The notes beneath the pieces were generated by a model. That model saw nothing but the letters and a program-made list of their open reading frames with translations. It did not search any database and had not been told where the DNA came from. A stretch of DNA of 43,498 bases from Patescibacteria group bacterium. Its GTDB lineage: Bacteria > Patescibacteriota > Microgenomatia > UBA1406 > HO2-37-13b. The translations under genes and the position numbers were made by a program. The DNA is taken from contig DATDVH010000021.1 of assembly GCA_035290045.1 (NCBI GenBank), forward strand, positions 1 through 43,498, in the 5' to 3' direction. Each line of letters opens with the position of its first letter. Positions within the stretch are counted from its first letter, which is position 1. Of the stretch, positions 13,602 through 43,389 are shown piece after piece.

Positions 13602-14036
13602 TTAAACTATAGATTTTGAAACTCCCGATCTACGGCGGCGTTTTATGACTTTTATATCAATCACCGATCGCCTAAGAGACATCATCGCCTCATGACGTTC
13701 CTCTTTGGTTTTACTTTCCTTGATAAGTTTTTCAGCGCTTTCTTGGGCTTTTTTCACTGCTATCTCGTCAATCTCGTCCTGATGGTACGCGCGAGAGACA
13801 AGAACAGTAGTCTTTTTTCCGTCAGTCTCAAGATACCCGCCGCCGATTGAGAAAAAAATTTCGTCATTTTCCTTTTTGACTTTAATCGCGCCCTCTCTCA
13901 AAAGTGAAAAAAGCGGTACGTGTTTGTGCAATATTGTTATTTCTCCAGACGCAGATGGGGCAGTAACTGTTGATACCTCATCCTCATACACGACTTTTTT
14001 TGGAGTAATAATACGAAGTCTAAAGGTATGGGACAT
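13602..14036 (-). CDS. atpC: F1 ATP synthase epsilon subunit
   Basis: 144 aa. The N-terminal beta-sandwich pattern (RLRIITPKKVVYEDEVSTVTAPSASGEITILHKHVPL) and its position after atpD support the call. Confidence 0.9.
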   Translation of the reverse strand: MSHTFRLRIITPKKVVYEDEVSTVTAPSASGEITILHKHVPLFSLLREGAIKVKKENDEIFFSIGGGYLETDGKKTTVLVSRAYHQDEIDEIAVKKAQESAEKLIKESKTKEERHEAMMSLRRSVIDIKVIKRRRRSGVSKSIV

Positions 14037-14084
14037 ATTGTTTTTAGTTTTATATATTTTATATTTTATTTTTAAAATTTTATA

Positions 14085-16351
<2,267 letters not shown>

Positions 16352-17851
16352 ATGTTTTCAAAAAATCTTTAACTAATGCGTGCAATTTTTCCTCATGCTG
16401 TGGGTTAAGAAGTTTCAGATCATTGATCTCATGGATTATATTTGATGCTTTCAGTGTACAATATGAGATGAATCGTTCTTCAAAATGCGTAATCTGAATA
16501 GTAGGTATAGTATCAAGATATCCTTGAGTACCAACCCATAAAATAAGTACTTGCTGGGCTAAAGTAAGAGGCTCATTTTTTTTCTGTTTGAGGAGTTCGG
16601 TCATACGAGCTCCTCTGTCTAATAATTTCCTAGTTGCACTGTCAAGTTCTGATTCAAACTGTGAAAAAGCCGCAATCTCTCTATATTGAGCAAGATCAAA
16701 CTTAAGTCCTCCCGCTACGTGTTTCATTGCCTTTGTCTGAGCGGCTGATCCAACGCGGCTGACGGAAATCCCGACATTGATAGCAGGACGCACACCTGAA
16801 TTAAAAAGATCTGCTTCAAGAAAAATCTGCCCATCAGTGATTGAGATAACGTTTGTAGGGATATACGACGATACATCTCCCTCTTGTGTCTCAATGATAG
16901 GAAGCGCAGTAAGGGATCCTCCACCCATCTGCTTATCAAGGCGACACGCCCTCTCAAGAAGTCGCGAATGCAGATAAAATATATCTCCCGGATATGCTTC
17001 ACGACCTGATGGACGACGCAATATAAGGGATATCTGTCTATATGCCCAGGCGTGTTTAGTCAGATCGTCGTAAATAACAAGTACATCTTTGCCCTTATCC
17101 ATAAAATACTCACCCAGAGTGCATGCGACATACGGCGCTATATATTGAAGCGATGCTGAATCAGACGACGTCGCCGCGATGATCGTCGTATATTCCATAG
17201 CCCCTTTTTTCTTGAGAAGATCATAGACTGCAGCGACTTTTGATGACCTTTGGCCGATGACTGCATAGACACAGACGATATTTTGATCTTTTTGATTCAA
17301 AATCGTATCAATAGCTATAGTGGATTTTCCTACTCCTCTATCACCGATGATAAGTTCCCGTTGACCTCTTCCTATGGGAATGAGCCCATCAATCGCCTTA
17401 ATGCCAGTTTGCAATGGGGTATTCACTGATTGACGATAAATGACACCAGGCGCAATACGTTCGACTGGATAGGTTTTATCTGAGTTAATACTACCCTGTC
17501 CATCTATGGGACGAGCAAAACCATCAAGTACTCTCCCCATACATGCAGAACCGACAGGAACAGACAGAATAGCGCCAGTGCCTTTTGCTCTATCTCCTTC
17601 TCGTATCGTCGTATAATCACCAAATACTATCGCGCCTACTTCATCCTCCCTAAGATCAACAACCATTCCCTTTACTTGATTAGGAAATGTGATCACCTCA
17701 CCATATGCGACATCTGAAAAGCCAGATAATATCACCACTCCATCTAATATTTGATCCACGGTACCTACATTTTCCTCTTTCAGGTCAATTTTACTGCCTA
17801 TTAGTTGATTTTCAATCTCTTTTATAAAAGAATCAGTTATTTTCATAATTT

Positions 17852-18136
17852 TTATATACTACTAACCTGAGCAGTTACTGTATCAAGACGGCCTGCAAGC
17901 GATACATCTAATATTTTTGATCCCCAGCTAACAATAAACCCTGCAATGATAGATTTATCTTCTCTTTTTTCAATTTCACATCCCCGAAGAAAAGGAAGAA
18001 TCTCTATAATATCATTGACTTCCTTATCTGTGAAGGCATACGAAGTGATTAATACAGCACTTTTTTTTTCTTCCTTTTTGAGTTCAAGTATGACCTGTTG
18101 TTTGATTTTCGCCCTCAAACTCTGACTAATTTTCAT
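17852..18136 (-). CDS. atpH: ATP synthase delta (OSCP) subunit, C-terminal-domain-only short form
   Basis: 94 aa. The end, IIAGFIVSWGSKILDVSLAGRLDTV, matches the OSCP C-terminal motif (liGG..i.vgd.viDgSv.grL). It sits between atpF and atpA. There is no equivalent of the ~100-aa N-terminal domain. Confidence 0.65.
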   Translation of the reverse strand: MKISQSLRAKIKQQVILELKKEEKKSAVLITSYAFTDKEVNDIIEILPFLRGCEIEKREDKSIIAGFIVSWGSKILDVSLAGRLDTVTAQVSSI

Positions 18137-18641
18137 ACGATGCAGTAAGAGGTGTTTTTTCTAATGTATCAATGAGCTTTTGAGTGATCTGCCTCTTTAT
18201 ATTCTCATCAATCAAATCGCGCAAAACTGATTTTATCATCAGAGAACTTGTTTTAATCACATCCTTTTTTAACCCATTGTAAAGAGTTAATTTTTCATCT
18301 TTCATCTGTTGTTTTGTCTGATTTCGTATATGTTCTGCATCATTTTGAGCTTTGAGAATAATATCTTTTTTTATTTGATCAGCCTCTTGTCTAATAGTTT
18401 TTATAATGAGACGTGATTGTTCTTGAGCCTCACTAATAATTATCTGCTTTTGAGCAAGCGCCTCTTCCTCTTTATTTCGCAAGTCAGCGATGATACGCTC
18501 CTTATCCTGTTCATTTTTTTTCTGTTCCTTGATAAAATGAGTGAGCGGTCGTGCAAGAAACTTTTTAAAAATAAAAAAGAACACAATAAAATTTATCAGC
18601 TGAGCGATAAGTAATCTGTAATCTATTCCTAATGCTTCCAT
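18126..18641 (-). CDS. atpF: Fo ATP synthase b subunit
   Basis: 171 aa with a single N-terminal TM (LIAQLINFIVFFFIF) followed by a long charged coiled coil. Its operon position fits. Confidence 0.8.
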   Translation of the reverse strand: MEALGIDYRLLIAQLINFIVFFFIFKKFLARPLTHFIKEQKKNEQDKERIIADLRNKEEEALAQKQIIISEAQEQSRLIIKTIRQEADQIKKDIILKAQNDAEHIRNQTKQQMKDEKLTLYNGLKKDVIKTSSLMIKSVLRDLIDENIKRQITQKLIDTLEKTPLTASYEN

Positions 18642-18650
18642 TATATTTTT

Positions 18651-19593
<943 letters not shown>

Positions 19594-19641
19594 GGGAAAT
19601 TAAAAATAAAAAATTAAAAGTCAAAAGTTAAAAACAATAAA

Positions 19642-19917
19642 TTAAAAATTGCCTTTGGTTGTTTTGAACAGGTTATAAAATGTACCTATTGTTCCTATTA
19701 TAATAAAAATTATAATAAATAGTGGTTTTGTTTTGAAAAAGTTGTCTATCAATAAGCCTAAAAAGACTCCTAATAATAAAGGAGCACCCACATAATACCC
19801 AATTCCTGCGTATTTTGCAAGAAGAAAATTATTATATATGGGTTTCTTCACTTTTTCTTTCTTATTTCTTTTTCTTATCTCATATCCTTTCCCAATTATA
19901 TAGTTGTTTACAGACAT
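19642..19917 (-). CDS. AtpZ/AtpI-like small membrane protein at the head of the atp operon
   Basis: 91 aa. Two TM segments follow a basic N-terminus (GIGYYVGAPLLLGVFLGLLID...). It lies directly upstream of atpB. Confidence 0.55.
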   Translation of the reverse strand: MSVNNYIIGKGYEIRKRNKKEKVKKPIYNNFLLAKYAGIGYYVGAPLLLGVFLGLLIDNFFKTKPLFIIIFIIIGTIGTFYNLFKTTKGNF

Positions 19918-20058: not shown

Positions 20059-22284
20059 TTATTTAAAAACTAAATCATACCAATTATCAAATGAATTATT
20101 TTTATATTCTTTCTTTGTTTTATTAAAATAAATCCATCTTCCACGATAGTTTCTGTCAGTATTCATGACTAATCCTCCTAAAAGATTTTTACCTGTTTTG
20201 TTATTTTCAAGAATGTATTTATATAATCCGTCTGCTTTTGACGCAAAATCGTTTAAGTATGATCCATGCGGATCAAACAATCCAATTCTTCCATTTTTAA
20301 GTTTCACTATAAAATCAACATAAAAAGGTTTTGTTTCTCCATGATGATAGGGAATGGCAAAAAATGTTGCGTCTCGATCTCCATTTTTAAACCACCATTC
20401 AACTGATTCTGACTTCTCCAAATAGGAAATAAAAGCGGTCTCATGTTTATTGTTCTGATTACTAAAAAAAGGAGACATAATTGACTTCTGAACATTTACT
20501 TTCTTATAGTTATTGTCATACACTAAGATATCTGGAATATTCCAATTTTCTTTTATCATTATTTCAGTCTCACGTTTTACGACATCGGATTTATATTCTT
20601 CTTTTGCCCTATTTAAGACTTCTTTGATATGTTCTGAATTTCCTTCTGATAATACTATCTGAATAATGTCATTCTCGCTTTCACACCACTCATAACCAAA
20701 ACTGTTATAGAAAAACGTATAGATTGATTCTTTTGCTCTTCCGACTGATCTATCTTCAGGATAAAACGGGGTTAAATTATTCCTCACAAAAAAGTCAAAA
20801 GATCTCTGCAAATCAAAATTGCTAAATTTTATTTCTCTATCGCCTACAATTGATACTCCAATTAAGGCATCTATGTCGTGAGATTTATAGTCAGAAATAA
20901 TACTGCTATTAATTTTCTTATCACTTCTGTCTATCAGATTCTTCAAGTCATACCGTTTCGCTTGATTCAAAAATATATCGGTAAATAACGGAGAAAGTCT
21001 TGTTTTTTCACGATGTCTTTTTGGATAGTAGGAACGTAAATTAATAGGCATATAATTAGCACGAATCTTGCTGGGATACATGCTGATATAATTTTTTGCC
21101 ATATCCTCTTTAATATTTATGTTATCTATATTTGTGTACACATAACCATAGTTAAGTATTTCATTTTCATAATATCCTTTTTCAGGTTCAGGCATTCTCA
21201 TAATTCGTCCAACTGTCTGTATTGAAAAAATAGCAGAATGCCACTCTCTAAACAAAACTAAAATTTGCGCTCTTGGACAATCCCACCCTAAAGCAATCGC
21301 TTGCTTGAAAATCAGCACTTCAACATCGCTATCGTGTCTCTCAATATCGTCTTTATTTATATGCTCGCCAGATAACCAAATAGCCAATTTGTTATTTCCC
21401 TTTTGAGTTGTGATCGCATATTTATGTTTCAAAATACTTTCTATTCGGTCTCTTATCCTATCCTCTACACTTGTTTTTCTATCAGGTAATTGAATTAAAA
21501 TCAAAGGATTTATCTCAATTTTTCCTTTTTTATAACTATCAACTAATTCTTGTCGTTTTTGTATCGCCACGTCTATAACTAATTCTTCGGTTCCTCCGCT
21601 CAATTTTTGTGTCCGGATTTTCCCGTGTTTTATAAAGTTTTCAAAATCATCATTGAGGATAACTGCTTTCTTAATCATTCCTTCTTTTTTAACATCTTCT
21701 AACTGGACAGATACTTTCTCATCTTCATCGTTAATTGTTGCAGGAGTAGCAGTCACTTCAATGGTGATTTTTGGTCCAATCATTTGAATGAGATCGTGCG
21801 ATATTTCACTGCTGGCATGATGATGCGCTTCATCAATGATCAAAACTATCTTTCGCCCTTCTTCTTTTGTTCGTTCTAATACCTTTGATAGATTAAATTC
21901 TTGCTCGTTATCGCGTATATAAATGTTATCCGTTTTATTAATGCTTTCCCAATTGAAAAATAAAATCTCATTTTCACTTATTTTCCTATCTTCCAAATCT
22001 TCAAAATAACAACATTTGCACGCTTGACTTATCTCAAAATAATTTTCTAATTTTTTATAACTTTGTTCATGTAGTTTCCTTGGAGCTGTCCAGATAAAAC
22101 AAAGAGGTTGCTTAACGTCTTCGCCATCAATCAATTGTTTCAAAAACTCCGCCATCATTATGGTTTTACCCGATCCCGTCGGTGCTTTAAAAACCATTTT
22201 TTTATCACCCGAATAACCCAGGAGCTTCTTTGTTTTTTCTAACAAACTATCTATCGCTTTTTCCTGATAAATTTTCAGTTGCAT
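20059..22284 (-). CDS. res: Type III restriction enzyme Res subunit (SF2 helicase plus C-terminal PD-(D/E)xK-like domain with a non-canonical motif)
   Basis: 741 aa. Motif I is KAPTGSGKT and motif II is IIDEAHH. The C-terminus FAIPYHHGETKPFYVDFIVKLKNGRIGLFDPHG aligns with the PDF...ExKG nuclease motif, but with VD and DPH. Confidence 0.85.
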   Translation of the reverse strand: MQLKIYQEKAIDSLLEKTKKLLGYSGDKKMVFKAPTGSGKTIMMAEFLKQLIDGEDVKQPLCFIWTAPRKLHEQSYKKLENYFEISQACKCCYFEDLEDRKISENEILFFNWESINKTDNIYIRDNEQEFNLSKVLERTKEEGRKIVLIIDEAHHHASSEISHDLIQMIGPKITIEVTATPATINDEDEKVSVQLEDVKKEGMIKKAVILNDDFENFIKHGKIRTQKLSGGTEELVIDVAIQKRQELVDSYKKGKIEINPLILIQLPDRKTSVEDRIRDRIESILKHKYAITTQKGNNKLAIWLSGEHINKDDIERHDSDVEVLIFKQAIALGWDCPRAQILVLFREWHSAIFSIQTVGRIMRMPEPEKGYYENEILNYGYVYTNIDNINIKEDMAKNYISMYPSKIRANYMPINLRSYYPKRHREKTRLSPLFTDIFLNQAKRYDLKNLIDRSDKKINSSIISDYKSHDIDALIGVSIVGDREIKFSNFDLQRSFDFFVRNNLTPFYPEDRSVGRAKESIYTFFYNSFGYEWCESENDIIQIVLSEGNSEHIKEVLNRAKEEYKSDVVKRETEIMIKENWNIPDILVYDNNYKKVNVQKSIMSPFFSNQNNKHETAFISYLEKSESVEWWFKNGDRDATFFAIPYHHGETKPFYVDFIVKLKNGRIGLFDPHGSYLNDFASKADGLYKYILENNKTGKNLLGGLVMNTDRNYRGRWIYFNKTKKEYKNNSFDNWYDLVFK

Positions 22285-22288
22285 ACAG

Positions 22289-23008
22289 CTATTTATTTTG
22301 CTGAACTTCTTTATATTTATTTTTTGCTATACTAACGATGTCTTTAAGTTGAGTTATAGAATCGTACATAAACTCTGGTTCTACTATAAAATATTTTACT
22401 TTATCTACCTTTACCGACAGCTTTTTCTTTAAGAAGTTCAAAGCCTTGTCTTTTTTTTTAGTTATAGGACAGACAATGTCTGCTTTATCATTAGTAATAA
22501 GTATTGTAAACCTACCATTTTCTTTTAAGCTATTGCGTAATTGCCTTCCTATGATAAGTAAGTCACTGTATCTTTCCAAAATAGCTAAAATATCTTCCTC
22601 GTAATCATATGATTTTTTTCCTTTATTTACTAAACTTTCGATAAAATTACAAAAATTTATAGACGCGTTTGGAATCCCATTACGGACTTTTGAAAAACCT
22701 AATGGATTTTTTAGTAAAAAAATTAACAGAAAAATTTTATCGAACACTTGACGTAAAATAAACACGTAACACTTGAAGTATAAATTCAACTTAACATCAG
22801 TATATATGTCTGACAACTTTTCCATATAAAAAGATGGAATTGGTAAATTTAGTTCTTGAAATTCTTGTTTTCTACCGTTAATTTTTTTTTCTAATCTATA
22901 AGAAAACAGCATGCTTAATTCCTTAAGTTCTTCAAAAAATATATCAAGAACGAGAAAACATTCATTAATATTATTTTGTATTTGTGGTAAATGTATTTTT
23001 ATCTCCAT
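22289..23008 (-). CDS. Hypothetical protein X, wedged between mod and res of cassette 1
   Basis: 239-aa ORF with 4-nt gaps to both neighbours on the same strand. I recognise no family motif, only a partial RQLRNSLKEN segment without His. Confidence 0.75.
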   Translation of the reverse strand: MEIKIHLPQIQNNINECFLVLDIFFEELKELSMLFSYRLEKKINGRKQEFQELNLPIPSFYMEKLSDIYTDVKLNLYFKCYVFILRQVFDKIFLLIFLLKNPLGFSKVRNGIPNASINFCNFIESLVNKGKKSYDYEEDILAILERYSDLLIIGRQLRNSLKENGRFTILITNDKADIVCPITKKKDKALNFLKKKLSVKVDKVKYFIVEPEFMYDSITQLKDIVSIAKNKYKEVQQNK

Positions 23009-23012
23009 ACTT

Positions 23013-24683
23013 TCATTTAAAAATCCTCCTATATACCCTTAAAATAGCTTCGGGAATAGGGGATAATTTAATTTTGTGTTTAACATCTTCAAATTCTTCA
23101 TCAAAAGTTTCATCGCCCAATGAAAAAATATATATATTGATTTTTCCTGTTATATCTTTGATTACTTTTTTAAAGTTCTGTATTGCCTTCGTATGCCAAA
23201 TGATACCGGTATGATGAGAGGCGTTTTTGAAGAGCTTAAAATCTTTTTTATCACATACTGGCTCAAATGTGCCTTCCTTTATGCAAAGCATCTCCGTTGC
23301 TTCTGTAGTAAGTTTGATTTTATTTTCATCTGTCGGTTCCTTATAATTCACAAAGTCTGTTTTGAAATATTTTATATTACCGCCTAATCCAGCTACTTGT
23401 TTTCCTTTCACATTTTTGTATCCTTCTATGACTTTTTTAATTCTTGGATAGCAAATATCTTCAGCGATTTTATATCCATTCCCATTATTATTTTCGTTAT
23501 TGGTACATAAAATAAATTTTCGGTTGCCATTATCTTCTTTATTAAGTTCAAGCACTGCATGTCCTGTTGTTCCTGATCCAGCCATAAAATCAAGGATTAT
23601 TGAGTTTTCTTTTGAGGATAGTTGTACTAAATGTTTAATTAAGGAAATTGGTTTTGGGTAATCAAAAATTCTATTATCAAATAAAGCATCAAGTTTTTTT
23701 TGTGCATCTCGTGTAGTTTCAACATTATCAATAATGTTTGTTGGTATCTGTTCATCTATATCATCTGGGAATATTTTTATACGAGGAACCGATTGATATT
23801 TTGGAGGAATTCCAAAAAATATTTTTTTTTGATTTATTAACTCTGTCATTTCTTCTTTTGATCGTTGCCATTGTCTTTTCCAAGTAATTCCTGACGGCGA
23901 TTTAATCTCAAAATAATTGAGATGATGTTTGTTCGACCTTTCTTCTGAAAATGAAATGCTTCCAGAAAACCAACTCCCGCGAGTATCATTATCTGGATTT
24001 TGGAATTCATAATTAACATAATTTAATATTGACCAAGAAGATAGATTATTTTTATTTTTTGCATAGCATAAAATATATTGTTGAAGTGTACGACTCCACC
24101 TATCTTTTTTTCCTTTGCCATGTAACCACATAAAGTTTTGGACAAAATTTTCTTCACCAAACAATCCTTTATTTTTATCGTCCATCAACAGCTTTAATTG
24201 CGCCATTTCGTTGTCATCAATTGAGATAAAAATTACTCCTGTATCTTTTAACAAGTTTTTGGCAAGTTTTAGTCTTTTTTCCATGAATGAAAGCCACTTT
24301 GAATGACGATAGCCATCTTCTTTATCAACAAATCTGTCGTTGAAAATAAAATCTTTGTTGCCTGTGTTATACGGAGGATCAATGTAGATGACATCAACTT
24401 TTTTCGCATGAGTATAATTTAAAACTGAAAGTGCGTGATAATTATCTCCTTCAATCAGTAAATTCATTGGTTTATTTTTATCAGTGATTATTTCTTTATT
24501 TTTTACCTCCTTTAATACCGGTAGTTTTTTCTTGCACATGTCAATCACTTCTTCTGGTTTTTCTTCCCATACAAGACCATATTTTTTCTTTTTTTTTAAT
24601 TCTTTCTTCAACCGACTAACTTCTATTTTTAAGATTTCAATTTCTGAATTATTGTCTGTATATTTCATACTTTTAGTTAACAT
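23013..24683 (-). CDS. mod: Type III R-M Mod subunit (beta-class N6A/N4C DNA methyltransferase)
   Basis: 556 aa. Motif IV (VIYIDPPYNTG) precedes motif I (ILDFMAGSGTTGHAV), which is beta-class order. There is an N-terminal coiled coil, and res is adjacent. Confidence 0.9.
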   Translation of the reverse strand: MLTKSMKYTDNNSEIEILKIEVSRLKKELKKKKKYGLVWEEKPEEVIDMCKKKLPVLKEVKNKEIITDKNKPMNLLIEGDNYHALSVLNYTHAKKVDVIYIDPPYNTGNKDFIFNDRFVDKEDGYRHSKWLSFMEKRLKLAKNLLKDTGVIFISIDDNEMAQLKLLMDDKNKGLFGEENFVQNFMWLHGKGKKDRWSRTLQQYILCYAKNKNNLSSWSILNYVNYEFQNPDNDTRGSWFSGSISFSEERSNKHHLNYFEIKSPSGITWKRQWQRSKEEMTELINQKKIFFGIPPKYQSVPRIKIFPDDIDEQIPTNIIDNVETTRDAQKKLDALFDNRIFDYPKPISLIKHLVQLSSKENSIILDFMAGSGTTGHAVLELNKEDNGNRKFILCTNNENNNGNGYKIAEDICYPRIKKVIEGYKNVKGKQVAGLGGNIKYFKTDFVNYKEPTDENKIKLTTEATEMLCIKEGTFEPVCDKKDFKLFKNASHHTGIIWHTKAIQNFKKVIKDITGKINIYIFSLGDETFDEEFEDVKHKIKLSPIPEAILRVYRRIFK

Positions 24684-24698
24684 AGTTCATGACAACTT

Positions 24699-24723
24699 GC
24701 AATGTGCAAAAAATGCACATTGC
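24699..24723. promoter_or_regulatory. Perfect 10-bp inverted repeat GCAATGTGCA-N5-TGCACATTGC, 16 nt upstream of the mod1 start
   Basis: Read directly from the sequence. It lies between the 85-aa HTH ORF and mod1 and is not followed by a U-run on the coding strand. Confidence 0.35.
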
Positions 24724-24763
24724 TTTTATTGTCTACTTCCTGATTTTAAAAAACCTTGTAAAA

Positions 24764-25021
24764 TTATTTTTTTATTTCCTCATCTGATTCAATATGTTCC
24801 AAAATGGAACTAACTGATTTTTTAGCTAATTCTCCTGTTTTAAAGATGTTGTGTAAATGTTTGGTAACCGCGGGTCTTTGTATATTAAAAAGAGTTGCTA
24901 TTTGACTTTGAGTTAACCACACAGTTTCTTTCTCCATTCGTACATCCAATTTAACCTCGTTTTTAGAAGTTTGATAAATAAATATTTCCCCTCTATTTTG
25001 TTTCCTTATTATTTTTTTCAT
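24764..25021 (-). CDS. RhuM-family N-terminal (DNA-binding) domain-only protein
   Basis: 85 aa. EIFIYQTSKNEVKLDVRMEKETVWLTQSQIATLFNIQRPAVTKHLHNIFKTGEL matches the conserved RhuM/virulence-protein N-terminus. Full-length members are much longer. Confidence 0.6.
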   Translation of the reverse strand: MKKIIRKQNRGEIFIYQTSKNEVKLDVRMEKETVWLTQSQIATLFNIQRPAVTKHLHNIFKTGELAKKSVSSILEHIESDEEIKK

Positions 25022-25090: not shown

Positions 25091-28000
25091 TTATGCAATC
25101 GTTTGGCTTAAATCAACTGCATTCTCAACGAGAAAATGAAGACGGTCATCTTTGGTATCTATCTTTCCTTTTGCAAGTATCACGGTATTTTGAGTCCAGA
25201 TAGTTTTAGTCGCGGCATACGTACGAGGAAATACAATGGCTTCAATTGAACCTGTTTCATCAAAAAGTGTCACAAAAGCCATCTCTTTATTTTCTTTTTT
25301 TGTCACTATTTTTTTCATTCTACTTAATGTACCTGCGATAATATGCGTTTCCTCTGCGTCCTCTGCGGTAATTTCACCGATTTTTTTAGTTACCTTTTTT
25401 TCAATAATTCCTTTGAATTGTGCGAGAGGATTTTTGGTGATAAAAAAGCCTATTACTTCCTTTTCCATGGATAAAAGCTCTGATTCAGATAATTCATCAA
25501 CTACCGGAATGATGTCAGCACTATTTTTTTCAGAGGAAAGCGATGAAAAAAGTTGAAATTGGCCTTGCGTTTTTTCATTTTTCATACGAAGGGTTTTTTC
25601 AAGCGCGGAAGGGTAATACATCAATAATCCTGCTCTATTCCCAAATGCATCAAATGCTCCTGCTTTTATCAAACTTTCAATAGTCTTTTTATTAGCTTTT
25701 CGGACGTCAACGCGATATAAGAAATCTTTCAATCCGACAAAAAAGCCCTTGGCACGTGCATGAAGAATAGAATCAATAGCAGACTGCCCAACATGTTTGA
25801 TCGCGGACAATCCAAAACGGATTGCTTCTTTTTCAATCTTAAAATCATAATCTGATGTATTTATGTCAGGTGGAAGCACCTTGATATCCATGCTCCGACA
25901 TTCCTCAATTGACTGAATCATTTTTATCTCTCTCTGCGATCCTGCTACCCCCTGCAATTCTGCAGATAAAAGAGCAGTCATATACTCCACAGGGTAATTT
26001 GCTTTCATATACGCAGTCCAATAGGCGATCAACGCATATGAGGCAGAGTGAGGTTTGTTGAATCCATATCCAGCGAATTTCTCAATAAAACCAAAAATCT
26101 GATCAGCCAATTTCCTCGTATAATTATTTGCCAGACACCCCGCTATAAACTTTTTATACTCCTTCTTCATCAGCGCCTTTTTCTTTTTTCCCATTGCCAT
26201 ACGCAAAATATCTGCTTCAGTCATAGAATATCCTGCTATTTTATTGGCAATCTCCATGACTTGTTCTTGATAGACAAGCACTCCGTATGTTTCTTCCAAA
26301 ATCGCTTTGAGATCGGCGTGAAGATATTTGATTTTACGAGGATTTTTCTTACCCTCAAGAAAAAGCGGAATGATATCCATAGGTCCTGGGCGATATAACG
26401 CCACCATAGCTGATATATCGGTGATTTTACTCGGTTGAAGCTCTTTTGCTAATCTTCGCATTCCTTGAGATTCAAGTTGAAATACCCCCACGGTATGCCC
26501 TTTTCCAATCAGTTCAAATGTCTTGGTATCGTCAATTGCGATATTGTGTATATCAATGGTATTTCCTGTTGATTGCTGTACATATTTAATTGCATTCTCT
26601 AAAATAGTAAGATTGCGAAGACCCAAAAAATCAACCTTCAAAAGTCCTACTGCTTTATTATCAGATACGGCATTGAGATCAATACAGTACATATCATATT
26701 GAGTAATGATGCGATCACCTTTTACTTCTTTTTGAAGCGGTACATAGGTAGTCAATTCGCAATCGGCTATTACGACCCCTGCGGCATGAACAGACGAATG
26801 TCGTGCCAATCCTTCAACTTTACGAGCAATATCAATAGCTTTTTTTACCTCCTCTTCGTTGTCATAGATATATTTCAGTGCAGGATTTTCCTCAAGCGCC
26901 TTTTCAATAGTCATAGCAAAACCTTGTTTTCCCTGTGGTATCATTTTGGCAATACGATCTCCAAATGCATATGACATTCCTAGCGCCCGAGATACATCTC
27001 TGATGGCAAGCCGTGCCTCCATACGTCCAAAAGTGATGATCTGCGCCACCTTTTCTTTTCCGTATTTTTGCGTAACATACGCAATTACTTCGTCTCGTCT
27101 GGTATCTGCAAAATCAATATCAATATCCGGAGGAGTTGGTCTATCGGGATTTAAGAAACGTTCAAAGGGCAAATTATACTCAATCGGATCAATATCAGTA
27201 ATTCGCAGTATATATGCGACTAACGAACCAGCGACCGATCCTCTCCCAGGACCGACTGCAATATGTTTGCTTTTTGCCCAATTGACAAAATCTGATACAA
27301 TCAAAAAGTACGTCGCATACCCTTTTTGAGATATAATCGTTAATTCATATTCTATTCGTTTCATGATCTCCTCAGAAGGATGGGTAAAACGATTATTGAT
27401 TGCATTATGAACTAAAGTGTGCAAATACTGTTCGGAAGTTTCCTTTGTTTTTATAGGAAACTCAGGTAAAATCCATGTCCCATACGGTATCTCTACGTTA
27501 CAAAGAGATACAATTCTTTCGGTGTTTTCAATCGCTTCTGGTAAATCGCTAAAAAGACCCCTCATCTCTGCTTCTGATTTGAAATAAAAATCTGGCGTAT
27601 CTATCATAGAGAGAGACCTATTTTCCTCCACAATAGTGCGACCTGTCTGTATACAGAGAAGAATTTCTTGAGCATAGGCATCATATTCTGATATATAATG
27701 CACATCAACAGTAGCTACAAGAGGTACTGCATATGTACGAGCAAGCGCAATCAAACCCTTATTGACCATATCATCTTTTTCACTTTTCCTGTGCCTTTGT
27801 AATTCAATATAAAAATCATCTTTATAAAGAGAAAGATATTTTTTTAGAATTGATTCAGCAGAGCTTGTCTGACCTTCAGCTATAAGTGAAGGAATCTCTC
27901 CGTTCAGACAGCCAGAAAGTGCAATAATCCCTTCACGATATCGCGAAAGTGTCTCAAAATCTACACGCGGTTTATAATAGTACCCTTCCAAATGCGCTAC

Positions 28001-28318
28001 CGTTACTATTTTCATCAAATTCATGTATCCTTGATAATTTTTTGCCAAAAGTACTAAATGATATTGGTCGCGATCTATGCCCGGCTGTCTGTCGTGCCGT
28101 GAATTTTTTGCCTTATACAGCTCAACTCCTAGTATGGGTTTTATTCCTTTTTCTTGCGCTTTGATATAAAAATCAAAAATACCATACATAGCGCCATGAT
28201 CAGTCAAAGCAACTGACTTCATACCGTGAGAAAGCGTAGAATCAACTAATTGATTTATTTTAATCAGTCCATCAAGAAGTGAATATTCTGAATGTACGTG
28301 CAAATGAGTAAAAGACAT
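25091..28318 (-). CDS. dnaE: DNA polymerase III alpha subunit
   Basis: 1075 aa. PHP N-terminus (FTHLHVHSEYSLLDG), the palm motif PDIDIDF, GLLKVDFLGLRNLT, YGFNKPHSASYA, and a C-terminal OB fold. Confidence 0.97.
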   Translation of the reverse strand: MSFTHLHVHSEYSLLDGLIKINQLVDSTLSHGMKSVALTDHGAMYGIFDFYIKAQEKGIKPILGVELYKAKNSRHDRQPGIDRDQYHLVLLAKNYQGYMNLMKIVTVAHLEGYYYKPRVDFETLSRYREGIIALSGCLNGEIPSLIAEGQTSSAESILKKYLSLYKDDFYIELQRHRKSEKDDMVNKGLIALARTYAVPLVATVDVHYISEYDAYAQEILLCIQTGRTIVEENRSLSMIDTPDFYFKSEAEMRGLFSDLPEAIENTERIVSLCNVEIPYGTWILPEFPIKTKETSEQYLHTLVHNAINNRFTHPSEEIMKRIEYELTIISQKGYATYFLIVSDFVNWAKSKHIAVGPGRGSVAGSLVAYILRITDIDPIEYNLPFERFLNPDRPTPPDIDIDFADTRRDEVIAYVTQKYGKEKVAQIITFGRMEARLAIRDVSRALGMSYAFGDRIAKMIPQGKQGFAMTIEKALEENPALKYIYDNEEEVKKAIDIARKVEGLARHSSVHAAGVVIADCELTTYVPLQKEVKGDRIITQYDMYCIDLNAVSDNKAVGLLKVDFLGLRNLTILENAIKYVQQSTGNTIDIHNIAIDDTKTFELIGKGHTVGVFQLESQGMRRLAKELQPSKITDISAMVALYRPGPMDIIPLFLEGKKNPRKIKYLHADLKAILEETYGVLVYQEQVMEIANKIAGYSMTEADILRMAMGKKKKALMKKEYKKFIAGCLANNYTRKLADQIFGFIEKFAGYGFNKPHSASYALIAYWTAYMKANYPVEYMTALLSAELQGVAGSQREIKMIQSIEECRSMDIKVLPPDINTSDYDFKIEKEAIRFGLSAIKHVGQSAIDSILHARAKGFFVGLKDFLYRVDVRKANKKTIESLIKAGAFDAFGNRAGLLMYYPSALEKTLRMKNEKTQGQFQLFSSLSSEKNSADIIPVVDELSESELLSMEKEVIGFFITKNPLAQFKGIIEKKVTKKIGEITAEDAEETHIIAGTLSRMKKIVTKKENKEMAFVTLFDETGSIEAIVFPRTYAATKTIWTQNTVILAKGKIDTKDDRLHFLVENAVDLSQTIA

Positions 28319-37177: not shown

Positions 37178-39880
37178 TCATACATTATTGGCAAACAAAC
37201 TCTCTAACTCCGCAAAATTCCTTAACTTATTTTTCTCAAATTCTTCCTGTTTTATATAGAGCATTTTATATGAAATGCTTTTTTGCGCTTTGTTTATATC
37301 ATCACTCCACTGCTTTAATCTTTCAATTTTCAAAACATCGTTAATATCTTCTCGTCCTTTTGTTTCAATAATAAATATTTCCTTTTCAGAAACCTTCACG
37401 ATAAAATCAGGATAAAAATTGGATAGTATTCCTTCTGCATTTTTATAATCAATCTTAAAATTCACTGCAAGGTAATTTTTTGCAAATGAAATAATATCGT
37501 CGCACCGTTCCAAAAAAGTAGCAAAATCAAGTTCAAAATGATTATCACCTACTATCTTATTGAATATACTTTTTTTAGGATGAGCTATATATGGCTTATC
37601 TCTCAACACAATTGGACGTGTATCGCTGATTTTAAGATAGTTTATGATCTGCGCTTCTCCCCTATCACGTATAGTGAGATCATTTATCGCAGTCTTAAAG
37701 GTCTCCATGATTATACGCACCACTTCAAACTCAGAAAGATTTCGTAAAATGTTCGCATCTTCCAGATCAACAGATTTTTCAAAAGGATATTCCTTGATAA
37801 ACTCCTTCACCTTTCCATATAAAATATCATATCCGCCAACGAGACGAAGCTCATTTTTTATCGTTTGTGCAAAATAACCAATCGCCGAATGATAATTGCT
37901 GGAAGGTGAAGTATCCAAAACTGTTGCATGATGAATGGTTTTATCAGAACCTGCTTTATTTACAACATACTGAAAGATAATTTCACGTTTTTCTCTTTCT
38001 GAAAATTGTTGTATTGGCATTTTCTTTGTTTCAAATTGAGAAGGGCGCAGTTCTGAAAGATTTTTATATTCTCTATATACACGCGGCGATAGTATGGGAA
38101 GTTCAATATCAAGTTGTTCTATATCTTTTTTTTTATTTTCAAAATCAACCTCAACCACTAAAGGAGCTATTGGTTTGTATCCTTCGCCCATTTTTCTTCG
38201 CTCAAGTGCTACTCCCTCACTTTTTACAGATTCTACAAAATTCATAAACGCATCAGTGCCGACGACGCTGACATATTCTTCTATATCCTTTCCAAAATAC
38301 ATGCGCCGAAGTCCTCTCCCTAAGGTTTGTTCTGGCAAAATATTACTCTGTGCAGAGTAGGGACGAAGTCCCACAATCGTTGTCACATTTTTCACATCCC
38401 ACCCCTCCTTCAACATCAGCACAGATACAATAGCTTTATAGCGGCTATCCCATGAGTCAATACGATGCGCTTCTTTTCGTAATTTTTCAAGTTCCTCCTT
38501 TTTCTTTCCTGTTGATGCCTCATATATATCTCCATTATTTTTTGTGTGAATAATAAGCACAGCATTTTTCAACTTTGGATACCTGCTTTCAAGATAACTC
38601 GCCACATCATCGCAGTTTTTGGTGTCATCAGTCATCACAAAAAGAATTGCTTTATTCGTATGTTTATGCTCCTCATATACTTTCTCCCATTCTAAATAAC
38701 CAAGATTGATAAAGTCTCCATATCGCTCGGTAAATTTACTGCTCTTTTTCTCCTCAAGTCTGGCGTGGCTGGCAGAATCGGGAATAACCGGGTGTTTGAC
38801 TACATTCTGATAAATTGCCTCAACAAGAGGATAGTCTGCGACAGTCTGCACAAAAATAGAGCCGTCGTTATGTTTGGGCGTTGCTGTTACATCAATCTGA
38901 AGCGCAAGTTCTGATCCTTTTTGTTTGAGATTATTATGAATATCCTGTATAGACTGAAACCATGCAAGCCGTTCGTCGTGGATATGATGCGCTTCGTCAT
39001 TCAACACTACAAGTTCGTCAATATCGCGCACAATATCGCTTACCTGTATCTTTGATTCATGTGTCTTGCCTGTTGGTTTTTTTCCTAAAAAATAATCTGT
39101 AGTATTTTCATCGCTAAGATTTGGTTCTGTTTCTCGCCCACTATATACTCTATGAATATTCGTAAGGAAAATATTACCAGTTTTGCGAAACGATCCTACA
39201 TCATCTTGCAGGTGAACAGTGAGTTGAAAATCATCTTTCCAATTTTTACCTTCATAACCATTATCCGGAAGCACCGGATCTTGATAAAAGATTTTTAAGC
39301 CGTCAAAATCCGCACGAATGCGGTCAAGTACAATAATATTGGGAGTGATAATGAGAAAGTTGCGCGCCAATGTTGAATTACTCTCATAAAGTTTGTGAAA
39401 ATAGCACCATGCAAGGATGAGGCTTAATACTTTTGTCTTGCCGCTTCCCGTCGCCATCTTTATCACAAATCGCCGCCAATCCTCTGGGAACATGCCGGCA
39501 GAAACTGCGCTTGAACTATCAAATCGCATTAGATCGTACTTATCTTTCACGCCAACCACTTCGTACAGATAAATAACCGTTTCAACAGATTCCCTCTGAC
39601 CAAAATAATATTGAAATTGTGCGGTTGCTCCATCAGCTTTTGAAAGTAAATGTTCGTGATTGAACCACCAGTCAAGAAGCGCTTTACTCGTATCTGTGGC
39701 GCCTTCATATTTTTTATTCCTCCATTCTTGCACTCTTTTTCTCAAAATCGCAACAAGCGGAGGAAGAAGCTTTTCATATCCTTGACTACGCAATTCCTCA
39801 TCAGCCGGAAACCAGCGATATTCTGGATCAGCTATCTCGTATGGTGATTTTGGAAATTTAGGATGTAATGCCATAGACAA
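37178..39880 (-). CDS. res: Type III(-like) restriction enzyme Res subunit (SF2 helicase plus canonical PD-ExK nuclease)
   Basis: 900 aa. Motif I is MATGSGKTK and motif II is LNDEAHH. The C-terminus is NFYPDFIVKVSEKEIFIIETKGRED. Confidence 0.85.
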   Translation of the reverse strand: MSMALHPKFPKSPYEIADPEYRWFPADEELRSQGYEKLLPPLVAILRKRVQEWRNKKYEGATDTSKALLDWWFNHEHLLSKADGATAQFQYYFGQRESVETVIYLYEVVGVKDKYDLMRFDSSSAVSAGMFPEDWRRFVIKMATGSGKTKVLSLILAWCYFHKLYESNSTLARNFLIITPNIIVLDRIRADFDGLKIFYQDPVLPDNGYEGKNWKDDFQLTVHLQDDVGSFRKTGNIFLTNIHRVYSGRETEPNLSDENTTDYFLGKKPTGKTHESKIQVSDIVRDIDELVVLNDEAHHIHDERLAWFQSIQDIHNNLKQKGSELALQIDVTATPKHNDGSIFVQTVADYPLVEAIYQNVVKHPVIPDSASHARLEEKKSSKFTERYGDFINLGYLEWEKVYEEHKHTNKAILFVMTDDTKNCDDVASYLESRYPKLKNAVLIIHTKNNGDIYEASTGKKKEELEKLRKEAHRIDSWDSRYKAIVSVLMLKEGWDVKNVTTIVGLRPYSAQSNILPEQTLGRGLRRMYFGKDIEEYVSVVGTDAFMNFVESVKSEGVALERRKMGEGYKPIAPLVVEVDFENKKKDIEQLDIELPILSPRVYREYKNLSELRPSQFETKKMPIQQFSEREKREIIFQYVVNKAGSDKTIHHATVLDTSPSSNYHSAIGYFAQTIKNELRLVGGYDILYGKVKEFIKEYPFEKSVDLEDANILRNLSEFEVVRIIMETFKTAINDLTIRDRGEAQIINYLKISDTRPIVLRDKPYIAHPKKSIFNKIVGDNHFELDFATFLERCDDIISFAKNYLAVNFKIDYKNAEGILSNFYPDFIVKVSEKEIFIIETKGREDINDVLKIERLKQWSDDINKAQKSISYKMLYIKQEEFEKNKLRNFAELESLFANNV

Positions 39881-39961: not shown

Positions 39962-40432
39962 CTAGAGCTTGGGGACTCTTTCATCGTAATCCCTTTTGCT
40001 AATGCGCAAAATACTGCATAATATCAGTTTGAAATCATCAAATAACTTTTTAACCTCAATTATCAACTTATCCATTTGTTTGTCTGCTACTGAATCGACC
40101 ATATTGTGAACAATTTTTATTCTGTAATGGTTAATTTTCTTCAAAATTTCTATGAGTTCTTCTTTATAGTTAAAATTTACTCTTTTAAGAGTACTAATTT
40201 TTCCACCTAATGGCTGTTTAATAAATTTGTTTTCATCTATACTTAATGGAATTAGTTTTACTATAGATACTAAAAAATATTCCACAAGATTAAAATAAAG
40301 CAAAGATGAGGCTGTCCTGTTAGGTAAATTATTCCTTCCATACATTAAATCCGATAGGTGCATTATTCGTATAGCAGTATGATTTTTAAAAATATCTTTA
40401 TCTGATATTTCTTTATATTTTGTGATATTCAT
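39962..40432 (-). CDS. Small alpha-helical protein with an Rx4H motif (HEPN/DUF4145-like candidate), wedged between mod and res of cassette 2
   Basis: 156 aa. Its ATG overlaps the mod2 stop by 4 nt. It carries ...[22 protein letters not shown] (R104-x4-H109), placed near the C-terminal third as in HEPN domains. The confidence value refers to the ORF; the functional call rates about 0.35. Confidence 0.75.
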
Positions 40433-42513
40433 ATATTCACCTCAATAACTTTCATCGTATCATTCCCAAAAATATCAACCACTTTCACTGCTATTTTGCG
40501 CCTGCCTTTTTCACATTCATGAAAAATGCTTTTCAGTTCAAGACTGCGGTTTTTCTTGGTACGGAAAGATTGCCACTCATTTTCAAAAATATAGTCCCCA
40601 GTCCACATCTCTTTATACTTTCCATCGCCTTTTGGCACTTTGATGATCTCTTTTTTGCTCTCAAAGTCAAAATCCACTGCCCAATAATCTATCCAATCAG
40701 TCCATTTTTTAGTAAGCACTTCGCGGGAGACAATGCCGTTTTTATCTTTGATGACTTTTACGATTTGTCCGTTATCCACAGTTACTTTTGCGTAGCCGTT
40801 TTTTATCTCTGTAACTATATTGTCAATTTTATCTTGACTATAGTGGACTGAAAAATCAGTCAGTTCAATCGCTACCGATTTATTCGTGATATATGGCTTG
40901 ACTTCAATATACGCCACATCATGAAATACCACTTGGTTTTTCTCTATTGCGCGCTTATCAAAGACATCTTTCGGAATGTATTTGAGCAGAATATCAACAC
41001 CTTTTTCCTTGGCGCTGTCAAGAATATGAGGAAAAAGTCCCATCTCAAATTCAAACGCAAGTATATCAACCTTTGTGAAATGTTTTTCTCTACATTCACT
41101 TATCACTTCTTCTATGAAAAGTCGGGATGCGGGCAAGTTAATTGGTCCAACAATAACCACTCGCGAAGACTTTTTGCCATGCACCGTCTGAAAGCCAACT
41201 ATTTTTTCCGCTTGATACGCTTTGAGAATAAGCTCCACAAAATCGTTATTTTTCTGTGCTATTTGTTTTTCTTTTTCTTCATCTTGAAGCTCTTGATTTA
41301 CTCCGATATAATGCTCTACTTCGTATTTGCCAAGATTGAGTATCTCAAACGCGCGATAATCACTGCTTTCTTTCTTCATCTTTCTTTGGACTTCAATCAT
41401 GCGTTTCCGTATCGTATGAATAGCAAACTTGCCAAGGTCCGACCCGATCCATTTCCGACCAAGTTTCTCTGCGACTGCCAAAGTAGTGCCTGAGCCGCAG
41501 AAAAAATCAGCGACAATATCATTTTCATTTGATGATGCTTGAATAATCCGTTCAAGAAGCGCTTCTGGTTTTTGCGTTGGATAGCCAACTACTTCATTTC
41601 GTTGCCTGTCTGCTGTGTAAACGTCACTCCACCAATCCTCCAGTCTCTTTCCTTGTTCTTCTAGTTGGGCAACTCTTTCAGCCGAATCCTCCGATTCTTT
41701 ACCGAGAAACGCACCTCTGTTGTGTATACCTGATTTATGTTCAACTCTTGGGGTGTTAAAAATATTTGTCTCTCCTTTTGAGTAAAAGAATATCGAATCA
41801 TGTTTGCGAGTGAATGCACTGTTGTTCTTTCCCGGTCCGCTATAACACCACGCAATTTCATTTCTGAAATTATCTTTCCCAAAAACTTCACTCAAAACCA
41901 AACGCATATAACTATTTACCCGATAATCACAATGTACATAAATACTGCCATCGTCGGCGAGTAGATCACGCATCAGAGATAACCTTTCATAGATCATCGC
42001 GATAAAACTATCCGCGCCCTTGCCCCAGGTATCGCGATATGCCAACTCTTCCAAAACTGTTGGTTCTTTGGTGAAGGTCTCATCGCCGATTACAATATCC
42101 ATAGAAAAATCAGCTCCCACATCAAATGGAGGGTCTATGTAAATCAGCTTTATACCGCCCATTTTTTCTATCTCTTCACGAAGCGGTCCATTTTTCAGAC
42201 TTGAAAGGATCAGTTTGTTATCGCCCCAGATCAGTTTATTCGTCCAACCCTTCAACTGCCGGCCGCGCGTATCATAACTAAAAAGACCAAGTTGCGCATG
42301 TGAGTCTTCAACCTTTTCTGCTCGCGGTTCGTCAATATGCTCAATGGTCTGAAAGGGAAGCACGACCTTCGTCACTTCATGTGTCTTACCGTTCCATACA
42401 AGCTCCACTTCCTTCTTATCTTCAAAAAGAAGAAAACGATATTTGTCTGGTATCTCTTTCTCTGCATCAATTAGTTTTATAACATCTCGTTTTTCATTGT
42501 CAGAAAGTTTCAT
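40429..42513 (-). CDS. mod: Type III(-like) R-M Mod subunit (beta-class DNA methyltransferase)
   Basis: 694 aa. Motif IV ([11 protein letters not shown]) precedes motif I ([26 protein letters not shown]). Confidence 0.9.
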
Positions 42514-42650: not shown

Positions 42651-42719
42651 ACAAGTAAATCCTCAACCGTGGGGTTCCGGATGGTTCCTCGTAAACAGCG
42701 GTTGAGGTTTTGTTTTTTT
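42651..42719 (+). ncRNA. Candidate small RNA B (extended -10 TGtTATAAT at 42636-42644; 9-bp stem plus U-run terminator)
   Basis: Stem cctcaaccg (42661-42669) / cggttgagg (42699-42707), followed by ttttgttttttt. The loop region contains GGGGTTCCGG. It shares ttCACAAG(a/t)AAA and GGGTTCCG with module A. Confidence 0.3.
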
Positions 42720-43389
42720 AGGAAAATAGAGGATTTTCTTCAATAACTCTTTTTTTTATGAGATTATAATAACTTTTATCATTGTACTCATATTTGCGAA
42801 AAATTGACCAACTCACAAAATCAACTACTTGTAGTGATTGCTCTTCAGTTGGATATTTAATAGCAATTTTAATCAAAGATCTATGGTTTGTTTTTACTTG
42901 TTCTTCTAAATAATGAGTAAAATTTTTATTTAAAAACTTGTTTGTTTCAAGCCTTGCCGCCACAAGTATAATGGGGATTGACGTATTCAAAATCTTCCTT
43001 GTCATAATCCTATCAAGTAAAATATTGGTAACGTAATTGTAAAGAATATGCTTTTCATCTTGAAGACGAGTATATACTTTTGATTTGTTAAGAAAGATCG
43101 TCATGATGTTGCAATTGCTTCTTGCCAATAGCTTTAATAACCTTTTACGCGTATATGGTTTTTCTTTATAACAATGAAGTACGCCACCACTCAATTTTTT
43201 TATTTTTTTTATTAGCGATTGATGAACTTTTTTGACAATCTTCTCCAACGGTTTCTTATCTATTGCAAAAATTAAAGTAATGATAAAGTACCTAGAACTC
43301 TTTTTCTTTTTGTTAAATCCAAGATCGACTGACTCATCTAAAAAAATATATTGTGACATATCTGGATGTACCAGAAATCTCAAAAACAA
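42718..43389 (-). CDS. DUF3800 family protein
   Basis: The N-terminal YIFLDES.D and the C-terminal LQVVDFVSWSIF are the two DUF3800 signature blocks. The likely true start is M11 (MSQYIFLDES, about 43359). Confidence 0.7.
   Translation of the reverse strand: MFLRFLVHPDMSQYIFLDESVDLGFNKKKKSSRYFIITLIFAIDKKPLEKIVKKVHQSLIKKIKKLSGGVLHCYKEKPYTRKRLLKLLARSNCNIMTIFLNKSKVYTRLQDEKHILYNYVTNILLDRIMTRKILNTSIPIILVAARLETNKFLNKNFTHYLEEQVKTNHRSLIKIAIKYPTEEQSLQVVDFVSWSIFRKYEYNDKSYYNLIKKRVIEENPLFS

Follow-up and report, generated by a model that had tools for sequence, protein, structure and literature searches.

An uncharacterised gene between mod and res of a Patescibacteria Type III-like restriction-modification operon: cargo of a recurrent slot and candidate anti-phage factor

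Why should a restriction-modification (R-M) operon of Type III carry a third gene between its methyltransferase gene, mod, and its helicase-nuclease gene, res? The question is raised by a stretch of 43,498 nucleotides from a Patescibacteria group bacterium (metagenome-assembled genome GCA_035290045.1, contig DATDVH010000021.1), the whole of which we refer to as the window. An initial annotation, made from the letters and a list of open reading frames (ORFs), had placed mod, a 239-amino-acid orphan gene (here called X) and res on one strand with 4-nt gaps, and our check of the ORFs and spacers reproduced the coordinates, the minus strand and the gaps exactly. That X is cargo, and that it occupies a defined slot within an R-M operon of Type III-like character, we consider highly probable. 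The fuller interpretation, in which X is mobile cargo of a defined mod/res slot and also an independent anti-phage factor, is one that we favour with modest confidence.

The slot is best seen in related operons. Our survey comprised 80 genome loci, fetched with a Res profile and chosen by their similarity to the window Res, and a few metagenome contigs. An insert lay between mod and res in 19 of the 80 loci, the two genes were adjacent or overlapping in 47 and 14 loci were not assessable, which puts the occupied share of the assessable loci at 19 of 66; the inserts in these 19 loci were of 126 to 910 amino acids (aa) and consisted of one or two genes. Every assessable locus whose Res was at least 60% identical to the window Res carried an insert (11 of 11), as did four further distinct operons found in gene-call look-ups, whereas more distant Res relatives had an insert in only 8 of 55 cases and mostly showed adjacency of mod and res. 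Public gene calls around three Res proteins with 70 to 72% identity to that of the window gave the order helix-turn-helix (HTH) gene, RadC, Mod, an intervening gene and Res, this intervening gene encoding an OLD-family ATPase-TOPRIM nuclease in two of the three operons and a DUF3644 protein in the third. The edges of the slot are narrow: the cargo ATG lies 1 to 7 nt past the mod stop codon in about 19 of 24 cargo loci, and the cargo stop codon lies no more than 14 nt from the Res ATG in about 18 of 24, the remaining loci having longer spacers or short overlaps. Among the loci compared, the slot is base-precise in position, and in one Res clade all the assessable members have it filled. The Res family is common in Patescibacteria, or candidate phyla radiation (CPR); DPANN archaea and members of several other phyla were also among its carriers in the survey.

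The 39 ORFs found in slots fall into 23 sequence clusters. Cargoes with an annotation match are the OLD nuclease; DUF3644, which corresponds to the PADLOC model PDC-S19 (1.8e-133) and is a HEPN family (PMC3710099); a two-gene cyclic-oligonucleotide-based anti-phage signalling system (CBASS) made up of a SMODS cyclase and a Cap15 effector; Mrr_cat; an IrrE (Peptidase_M78)/HTH protein with DUF4411 (PIN); Bro-N; a Schlafen (SLFN) cargo with AlbA_2 and HATPase_c_4; RNase H with DUF3800, or DUF3800 alone (loci L029 and L045 carry DUF3800); Ppl; PDC-M04A; PDC-M48B with a membrane protein; and, at one locus, an IS200 transposase. Besides X, there are six or more cargo families with no annotation match. 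Most of the identifiable cargoes are defence genes. The initial annotation had proposed that the junction is a hotspot for accessory modules, and for the Res family of the window this stands, with every assessable close relative occupied and many of the cargoes defensive; in the more distant relatives the two genes are mostly adjacent.

Embedding of defence genes within other defence systems is an established phenomenon. Payne et al. (Payne, Hughes, Fineran and Jackson, 2024; bioRxiv 10.1101/2024.01.29.577857) described 'guilt-by-embedding' for defence genes inside Hma, BREX, DISARM and Type I R-M systems, validated seven such candidates, one of which was the DUF3644/HEPN protein HEC-08, and made the PDC models public, some of which match slot cargo of our surveyed loci. 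Embedded genes proved frequently to be functional defences, a DUF3644 protein among them (bioRxiv 10.1101/2024.01.29.577857). The loci described here resemble that class in several ways: extra genes in the same orientation stand between the genes of a multi-gene system; the cargo is diverse and includes known defences and occasional mobile-element genes; many of the cargo families also occur outside any such system; and DUF3644 and OLD/ABC-TOPRIM cargoes are among the validated or candidate families of the class (HEC-08, HEC-01/04 and PDC-S19). X itself lies on the same strand between defence-system genes, and related systems hold known defences and diverse cargo at the same place. The differences are that the class has been described for Hma, BREX, DISARM and Type I R-M hosts rather than for Type III, that there is here a single base-precise slot filled throughout one Res clade, and that X is not in PADLOC. 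A limited literature search found no description of embedding at a Type III mod/res junction, which is no proof of novelty. The suggestion that this architecture goes beyond the textbook definition of Type III systems needs qualifying: the Type III host appears undescribed, but embedding as such has already been published for the four other kinds of host. What appears to be new is the Type III-like host, the base-precise slot with its constant occupancy in one clade, and the candidate family X.

The cargo of the slot changes readily. A group of Res proteins that are 82 to 89% identical to each other is associated with four cargo types, namely OLD (twice), DUF3644, an unknown protein of 390 aa and Ppl, and the same CBASS cargo (68 to 75% identical) occurs in Res backgrounds that are only 49% identical. 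In these comparisons, cargo turnover outpaces Res divergence. Between loci with different cargo, the 300-nt stretches bordering the slot on either side retain 70 to 85% DNA identity. Cargo would be swapped by homologous recombination through the conserved mod 3' end, of approximately 600 nt, and the conserved res 5' end.

Some of the surveyed loci showed other arrangements. About half of the loci with cargo have RadC directly upstream of mod, an arrangement that is rare in loci of the adjacent type. In the loci with a DUF3644 gene (L006:629-4623 and also L007 to L009), DUF4357 and NYN genes lie between RadC and mod, which suggests a second cargo position upstream of mod. Locus L028 (3095-7352) is decayed: it reads RadC, an N-terminally truncated OLD nuclease and Res, with mod deleted. 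A viral contig from IMG/VR (L106:2887-3030) contains only the first 48 codons of a Res-family gene, with 75% identity; this fragment could be a remnant or a recombination footprint.

The host operon encodes recognisable Type III components. Mod matches Pfam N6_N4_Mtase (7.8e-35) and PADLOC MTase_III (3.9e-95), and its matches in the PDB are to Type III Mod proteins, 6k0w (2e-52) and the EcoP15I Mod 4zcf (5e-36). Its central target recognition domain, at approximately residues 175 to 355, is hypervariable, with less than 25% identity among relatives, and the flanks are 60 to 95% identical; the conserved parts are the N-terminal part and the C-terminal 200 aa or so. Res matches Pfam ResIII (2.4e-24), DEAD and SWI2_SNF2 and PADLOC REase_III (1.2e-19), and the GSGKT and DEAHH motifs are invariant across its family. 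This family has more than 7,800 homologues at E <1e-10, many of them approximately 70% identical to the window Res across distant phyla, and is widely transferred. Neither the Res sequence nor the family profile had a match in the PDB, and so none to EcoP15I Res. Its nuclease motif aligns with the 'FYPDF...ETKG' segment of Res2, the Res of a second cassette in the window. Most relatives and Res2 have D/E-x-K at this position (in the family mostly VD...D-T-K), and the window Res has D671-P-H673. The D-P-H or D-T-H variant is recurrent in a subclade of Res proteins, and its members also match Pfam PF27151 (YagJ).

Type III enzymes cleave DNA in an ATP-dependent manner when two inversely oriented unmethylated sites are present, and hemimethylation is carried out by Mod. 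With respect to membership of this class, the window operon has a Type III Mod and a Res of the superfamily 2 (SF2) helicase/ATPase type; it departs from the adjacent two-gene layout in having a gene of 720 nt between the two, although the more distant relatives do show adjacency or overlap. It resembles the canonical systems EcoP15I and EcoP1I in the order of mod and then res, in the relationship of its Mod to the EcoP15I Mod and in a Res that is an SF2 helicase and may have a C-terminal PD-(D/E)xK-like domain. It differs from them in that the window Res is shorter (741 aa) and divergent, with a His at the position of the catalytic Lys, and in that a third gene stands between mod and res.

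We next consider X itself. It had no match above chance level in Pfam (E up to 10), NCBIfam, PADLOC or, by sequence, the PDB; a profile search of the PDB returned only noise, and against PHROGs there was a single weak partial match (E 0.0014) to an unannotated PHROG. A word-index search of 5.8 billion proteins found only an identical fragment and one syntenic orthologue, and the same kind of search with the X-family profile gave only five proteins. An exhaustive HMMER scan of 1.84 billion cluster representatives was more productive, identifying 22 X-family proteins, nearly all of 217 to 272 aa; a metagenome scan with a subset of the family alignment gave only two loci. Across the alignment R158, N159 and K162 are invariant and E27, L28, K79, F83, Q87, Y134 and R155 nearly so. 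The R..RN segment singled out in the initial annotation is therefore the only invariant motif of the family, in the form RxxRNxxK. An AlphaFold model built from the 23-sequence alignment has a predicted local distance difference test (pLDDT) score of 91 and a predicted template modelling (pTM) score of 0.88; with three sequences only, pLDDT was 37, and the 23 sequences were needed for a confident model. The predicted fold is a helical bundle with helices at 14-52, 72-98, 119-133, 138-146, 148-164 and, at the C terminus, 212-238, along with a small three-stranded sheet (168-172, 175-181 and 206-209). Foldseek searches of the PDB and BFVD with this model gave a best E value of 0.2, and the top matches were generic helical bundles. 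X is thus a member of an uncharacterised family whose predicted fold has no detectable neighbour in the PDB or BFVD, and profile, sequence and structure searches likewise failed to place it, in agreement with the initial annotation, which could assign it to no family.

A likeness to HEPN proteins had also been suggested for the R..RN segment, and X does resemble that superfamily (Abi2/AbiD/F, DUF3644/EC042_2821) in being mostly helical, in carrying the motif on a helix and in being embedded in an R-M operon, as several HEPN families are. The likeness does not go further. The X family has RNxxK and no conserved His four to six residues past the Arg; no conserved His was found at +4 to +7 after R158 in the family alignment, as the HEPN motif Rx4-6H would demand. 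HEPN Pfam models had no match among the 23 family members at E up to 5, the alignment of X with the DUF3644 HEPN cargo of a sister locus by hhalign had a probability of 0.3%, and no HEPN protein was among the listed top 50 Foldseek matches, although Foldseek is weak on all-helical folds and might miss a very remote relationship. We reject the assignment of X to HEPN on the lack of the conserved His and of any profile or fold match. A Pfam scan of the 23 members found nothing consistent across the family; two sub-threshold matches to the T4 Stp 'Nuclease_act' model were judged to be chance. No relationship was detected by hhalign between the X profile and any other slot protein, the 85-aa and 156-aa ORFs of the window or the DUF3800 protein, and profile scans found no DNA-binding or HTH signature in X.

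The closest orthologue of X (P0002, 75% identical) is on a related contig, L001, with the syntenic order dnaE, mod, X, res, atp genes. Between the window and this contig the ratio of nonsynonymous to synonymous substitution rates (dN/dS) is 0.22 for X, which is thus under purifying selection; the corresponding values are 0.17 (mod) and 0.12 (res). Outside this syntenic locus, every X relative that could be placed lies outside a mod/res junction. One of them, 47% identical to X (P0123), is alone on a 1-kb contig with non-R-M flanks, and another is alone on a short contig (P0126). P0142 lies between greA/pyrG and yceG, and P0127 has unrelated flanking genes, of which the downstream one appears, from its translation, to be glycosyltransferase-like. 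Others have neighbours of a different kind: P0124 is 1.6 kb upstream of a Type II R-M system with an NgoMIV-like nuclease, P0125 adjoins a DUF3800 gene and P0128 adjoins a DUF2971 gene with a HigB/HTH pair nearby. A distant homologue on a phage-like contig (P0143, L013:2274-3750) is followed 4 nt later by the start of a trypsin-like serine protease, and the pair may form a two-gene module involving the X fold. One family member (P0130, L017:5061-6419) has an extra N-terminal domain of 215 aa with no Pfam match. X had no match in plasmid and phage collections searched by tblastn or in a scan of IMG/VR. The placed homologues that were examined are, therefore, mostly outside R-M contexts, a distribution which the initial annotation had itself named as evidence against its view of X; this argues against an R-M-specific component and fits mobile cargo. 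X behaves as a self-contained mobile gene, sometimes found in defence-like neighbourhoods, that to judge from these contexts was captured once into the slot.

A mechanism can be proposed from these observations. X would be a horizontally mobile gene that has become lodged at the mod/res junction of a widely transferred Type III-like R-M operon family, where it would share a transcript with mod and res and where its translation would probably be coupled to theirs. Its product would act as a self-contained second-line anti-phage or abortive-infection factor rather than as a subunit of the restriction enzyme. As its active surface we propose the helix at 148-164, with its basic RxxRNxxK face, together with E27, K79, Q87 and Y134, and the conservation of this basic face suggests that X binds nucleic acid or another phosphate-bearing ligand. 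By analogy with other embedded genes, and given the neighbourhoods of some homologues and the purifying selection on X, we put a function in defence at a little better than even. The homologues that bear on this point are those adjoining a Type II R-M system, DUF3800, DUF2971 with HigB and the trypsin-like protease.

Several observations weigh against this interpretation. There is a single independent instance of an embedded X, as the window and L001 represent the same syntenic locus, and some X homologues are found among housekeeping genes (greA/pyrG at P0142 and the glycosyltransferase-like gene at P0127). Slots also hold non-defence items, such as IS200, and embedding alone is no proof of defence. 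X has no PADLOC match, and the homology searches point to no activity. With D-P-H in place of D-x-K in Res, the R-M activity of the host is not certain. Finally, we infer the co-transcription of X with mod and res, and the recombinational exchange of cargo is read from the conservation of the flanks.

The most serious alternative is that X is cargo without a defence role, that is, a selfish or neutral hitchhiker, an anti-defence gene or some other accessory gene in a recombination-prone junction. An IS200 transposase can occupy the slot, the housekeeping surroundings of some X homologues fit such a gene and so does the lack of a PADLOC match. However, X is under purifying selection, most of the identifiable slot cargoes are defence genes, several X homologues adjoin defence or toxin-antitoxin genes and searches of the phage and plasmid collections did not recover X. 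We regard this alternative as unlikely, though worth keeping in mind.

A second possibility is that X is a guardian of the PrrC type, held inactive by Mod and Res and freed as a toxic effector when phage anti-restriction proteins inhibit R-M. The classic example of embedding is the PrrC anticodon nuclease, whose gene lies inside the Type IC R-M locus EcoprrI, and many HEPN families, including RloC and others, sit in R-M operons (PMC12707154; PMC3710099). The genomic logic of X is the same as that of prrC inside EcoprrI (PMC12707154; PMC3710099): a non-R-M gene is embedded in an R-M operon, presumably co-expressed with it, and is a plausible second line of defence. X is also packed tightly between mod and res in the same orientation, and its conserved basic motif is compatible with an effector directed at nucleic acid. 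PrrC, however, combines an ABC ATPase with a HEPN domain, belongs to a Type I locus and has a demonstrated physical and functional coupling to it, whereas X has neither an ABC ATPase nor a HEPN module, lacks Rx4-6H and has relatives that are mostly without any R-M partner. Moreover, the same Mod/Res scaffold hosts self-sufficient systems such as CBASS, and the slot does not, therefore, require physical coupling. Such a role for X seems to us rather improbable. More doubtful again is a bolder version, in which X would be the founder of a family with a new fold whose members act as single-protein effectors or sensors of abortive infection. In this operon it would be wired to the Type III enzyme as a guardian, and the slot would be a dedicated platform on which defence genes are exchanged across CPR bacteria, DPANN archaea and other phyla.

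X could also be a dedicated third subunit or regulator of the Type III enzyme, acting on the expression or timing of Res, on specificity or on assembly. The 4-nt gaps suggest co-translation, and X has been kept together with mod and res in the syntenic locus. Against this, the ends and sequences of Mod and Res do not differ between slots with X, OLD or CBASS and, in more distant relatives, empty ones; all X homologues with an examinable context, bar the one syntenic orthologue, lie outside R-M operons; and X has no DNA-binding or HTH signature. A subunit or regulator is accordingly a poor prospect. That X is an artefact, whether a chance ORF or a fragment split from mod or res by a frameshift, has nothing in its favour but the unusual position and can be dismissed, given the conserved Mod end EAILRVYRRIFK before the stop codon and the conserved Res start MQLKIYQE, as in about 60 related loci, and the possession by X of its own 22-cluster family, a confident independent predicted fold and a dN/dS of 0.22. 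The Res N terminus in those loci is MQLKIYQ(E/Q)NAID, and the window Mod and Res have exactly this C-terminal end and this N-terminal start, respectively; X is not a piece of either gene because Mod and Res keep their family termini with nothing missing. The frameshift named in the initial annotation is thus ruled out by alignment to full-length homologues, which shows Mod and Res to be complete, and by the existence of a separate X family. The chance of a 239-codon ORF in DNA of 26% GC, by arithmetic from base composition, is approximately 5e-10.

The preferred reading, of X as cargo and candidate defence gene, can now be set in the layout of the window (Table 1). The guanine-plus-cytosine (GC) content falls from 38% in the flanking housekeeping genes to 32% in res, 30% in mod and 26% in X. 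The insertion site between dnaE and the ATP synthase operon is common to the R-M island and the related contig L001, and from its position and composition the island looks like a horizontally acquired element. Within the operon no terminator-like sites were found on the coding strand and promoter-like matches were not above the level in shuffled sequence; internal promoters and terminators were rejected on these grounds. An AGGAGG in the codons for the C-terminal YRR of Mod was considered as a Shine-Dalgarno sequence but is 16 to 17 nt from the next ATG, too far to make the claim. The perfect inverted repeat 16 nt upstream of the mod ATG may be an operator for the operon or the terminator of the upstream ORF. 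That ORF, of 85 aa, covers only a RhuM-like N-terminal domain, several of the matching models being 285 to 346 positions long, and could be either what is left of a truncated gene or a small form that stands alone.

Table 1. Features of the window discussed in the text (positions in the 43,498-nt stretch).
Feature	Position	Strand	Remarks
atp operon (ATP synthase)	about 13602-19917		one flank of the R-M island
res	20059-22284	minus	741-aa SF2 helicase and predicted nuclease
Res nuclease motif position D671-P672-H673	20266-20274	minus	from alignment with relatives and Res2
spacer, X stop to res start	22285-22288	minus	4 nt, ctgt; downstream edge of cargo slot
X	22289-23008	minus	239-aa cargo gene; annotated as hypothetical protein HLD26597.1; 26% GC
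X-family motif codons R155-x-x-R158-N159-x-x-K162	22523-22546	minus	on predicted helix 148-164
spacer, mod stop to X start	23009-23012	minus	4 nt, aagt; upstream edge of cargo slot
mod	23013-24683	minus	556 aa; N6-adenine DNA methyltransferase of the Type III class
perfect 10-bp inverted repeat GCAATGTGCA-N5-TGCACATTGC	24699-24723		16 nt upstream of mod ATG
85-aa ORF	24764-25021	minus	upstream of mod; match to PADLOC candidate PDC-S05 (3e-27)
dnaE	25091-28318		other flank of the R-M island (20059-25021)
res2	37178-39880	minus	second cassette
156-aa orphan ORF	39962-40432	minus	between mod2 and res2
mod2	40429-42513	minus	second cassette
DUF3800 gene	42718-43389	minus	just upstream of mod2

The second cassette of the window presents a similar case. 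Over 99% of its length, Res2 shares 61 to 62% identity with the Res proteins of two alphaproteobacterial plasmids. In the closest relative with an annotation, the plasmid Aminobacter pANY103c, mod and res have a 1-nt overlap and no gene in between, from which it follows that the 156-aa ORF, too, is an insertion. Its one match, weak and partial (E 4e-4), is to a PHROG without annotation; profile scans and a search of the plasmid collection found no other family match and no plasmid homologue. The enzymes of the two cassettes are 22 to 24% identical and their inserted ORFs are unrelated, in agreement with the earlier observation of two independent Type III cassettes, each with an unrelated extra gene at the mod/res junction.

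In summary, our results point to X as the cargo of a defined slot in a Type III-like R-M operon family, and, if this is correct, the principle of guilt-by-embedding would reach a further class of host. X combines a confidently predicted fold that lacks a structural neighbour with a clear mutational target (R155, R158, N159 and K162) and would, hence, be directly testable. The locus would also offer a natural system for asking why cargo sits between mod and res, for which co-regulation, delayed expression of Res or exchange through conserved flanks are possible reasons. To our knowledge, known defence systems are scarce in CPR bacteria, DPANN archaea and the other phyla concerned. A slot that is base-precise and always filled in one clade would provide a ready-made trap for new defence genes.

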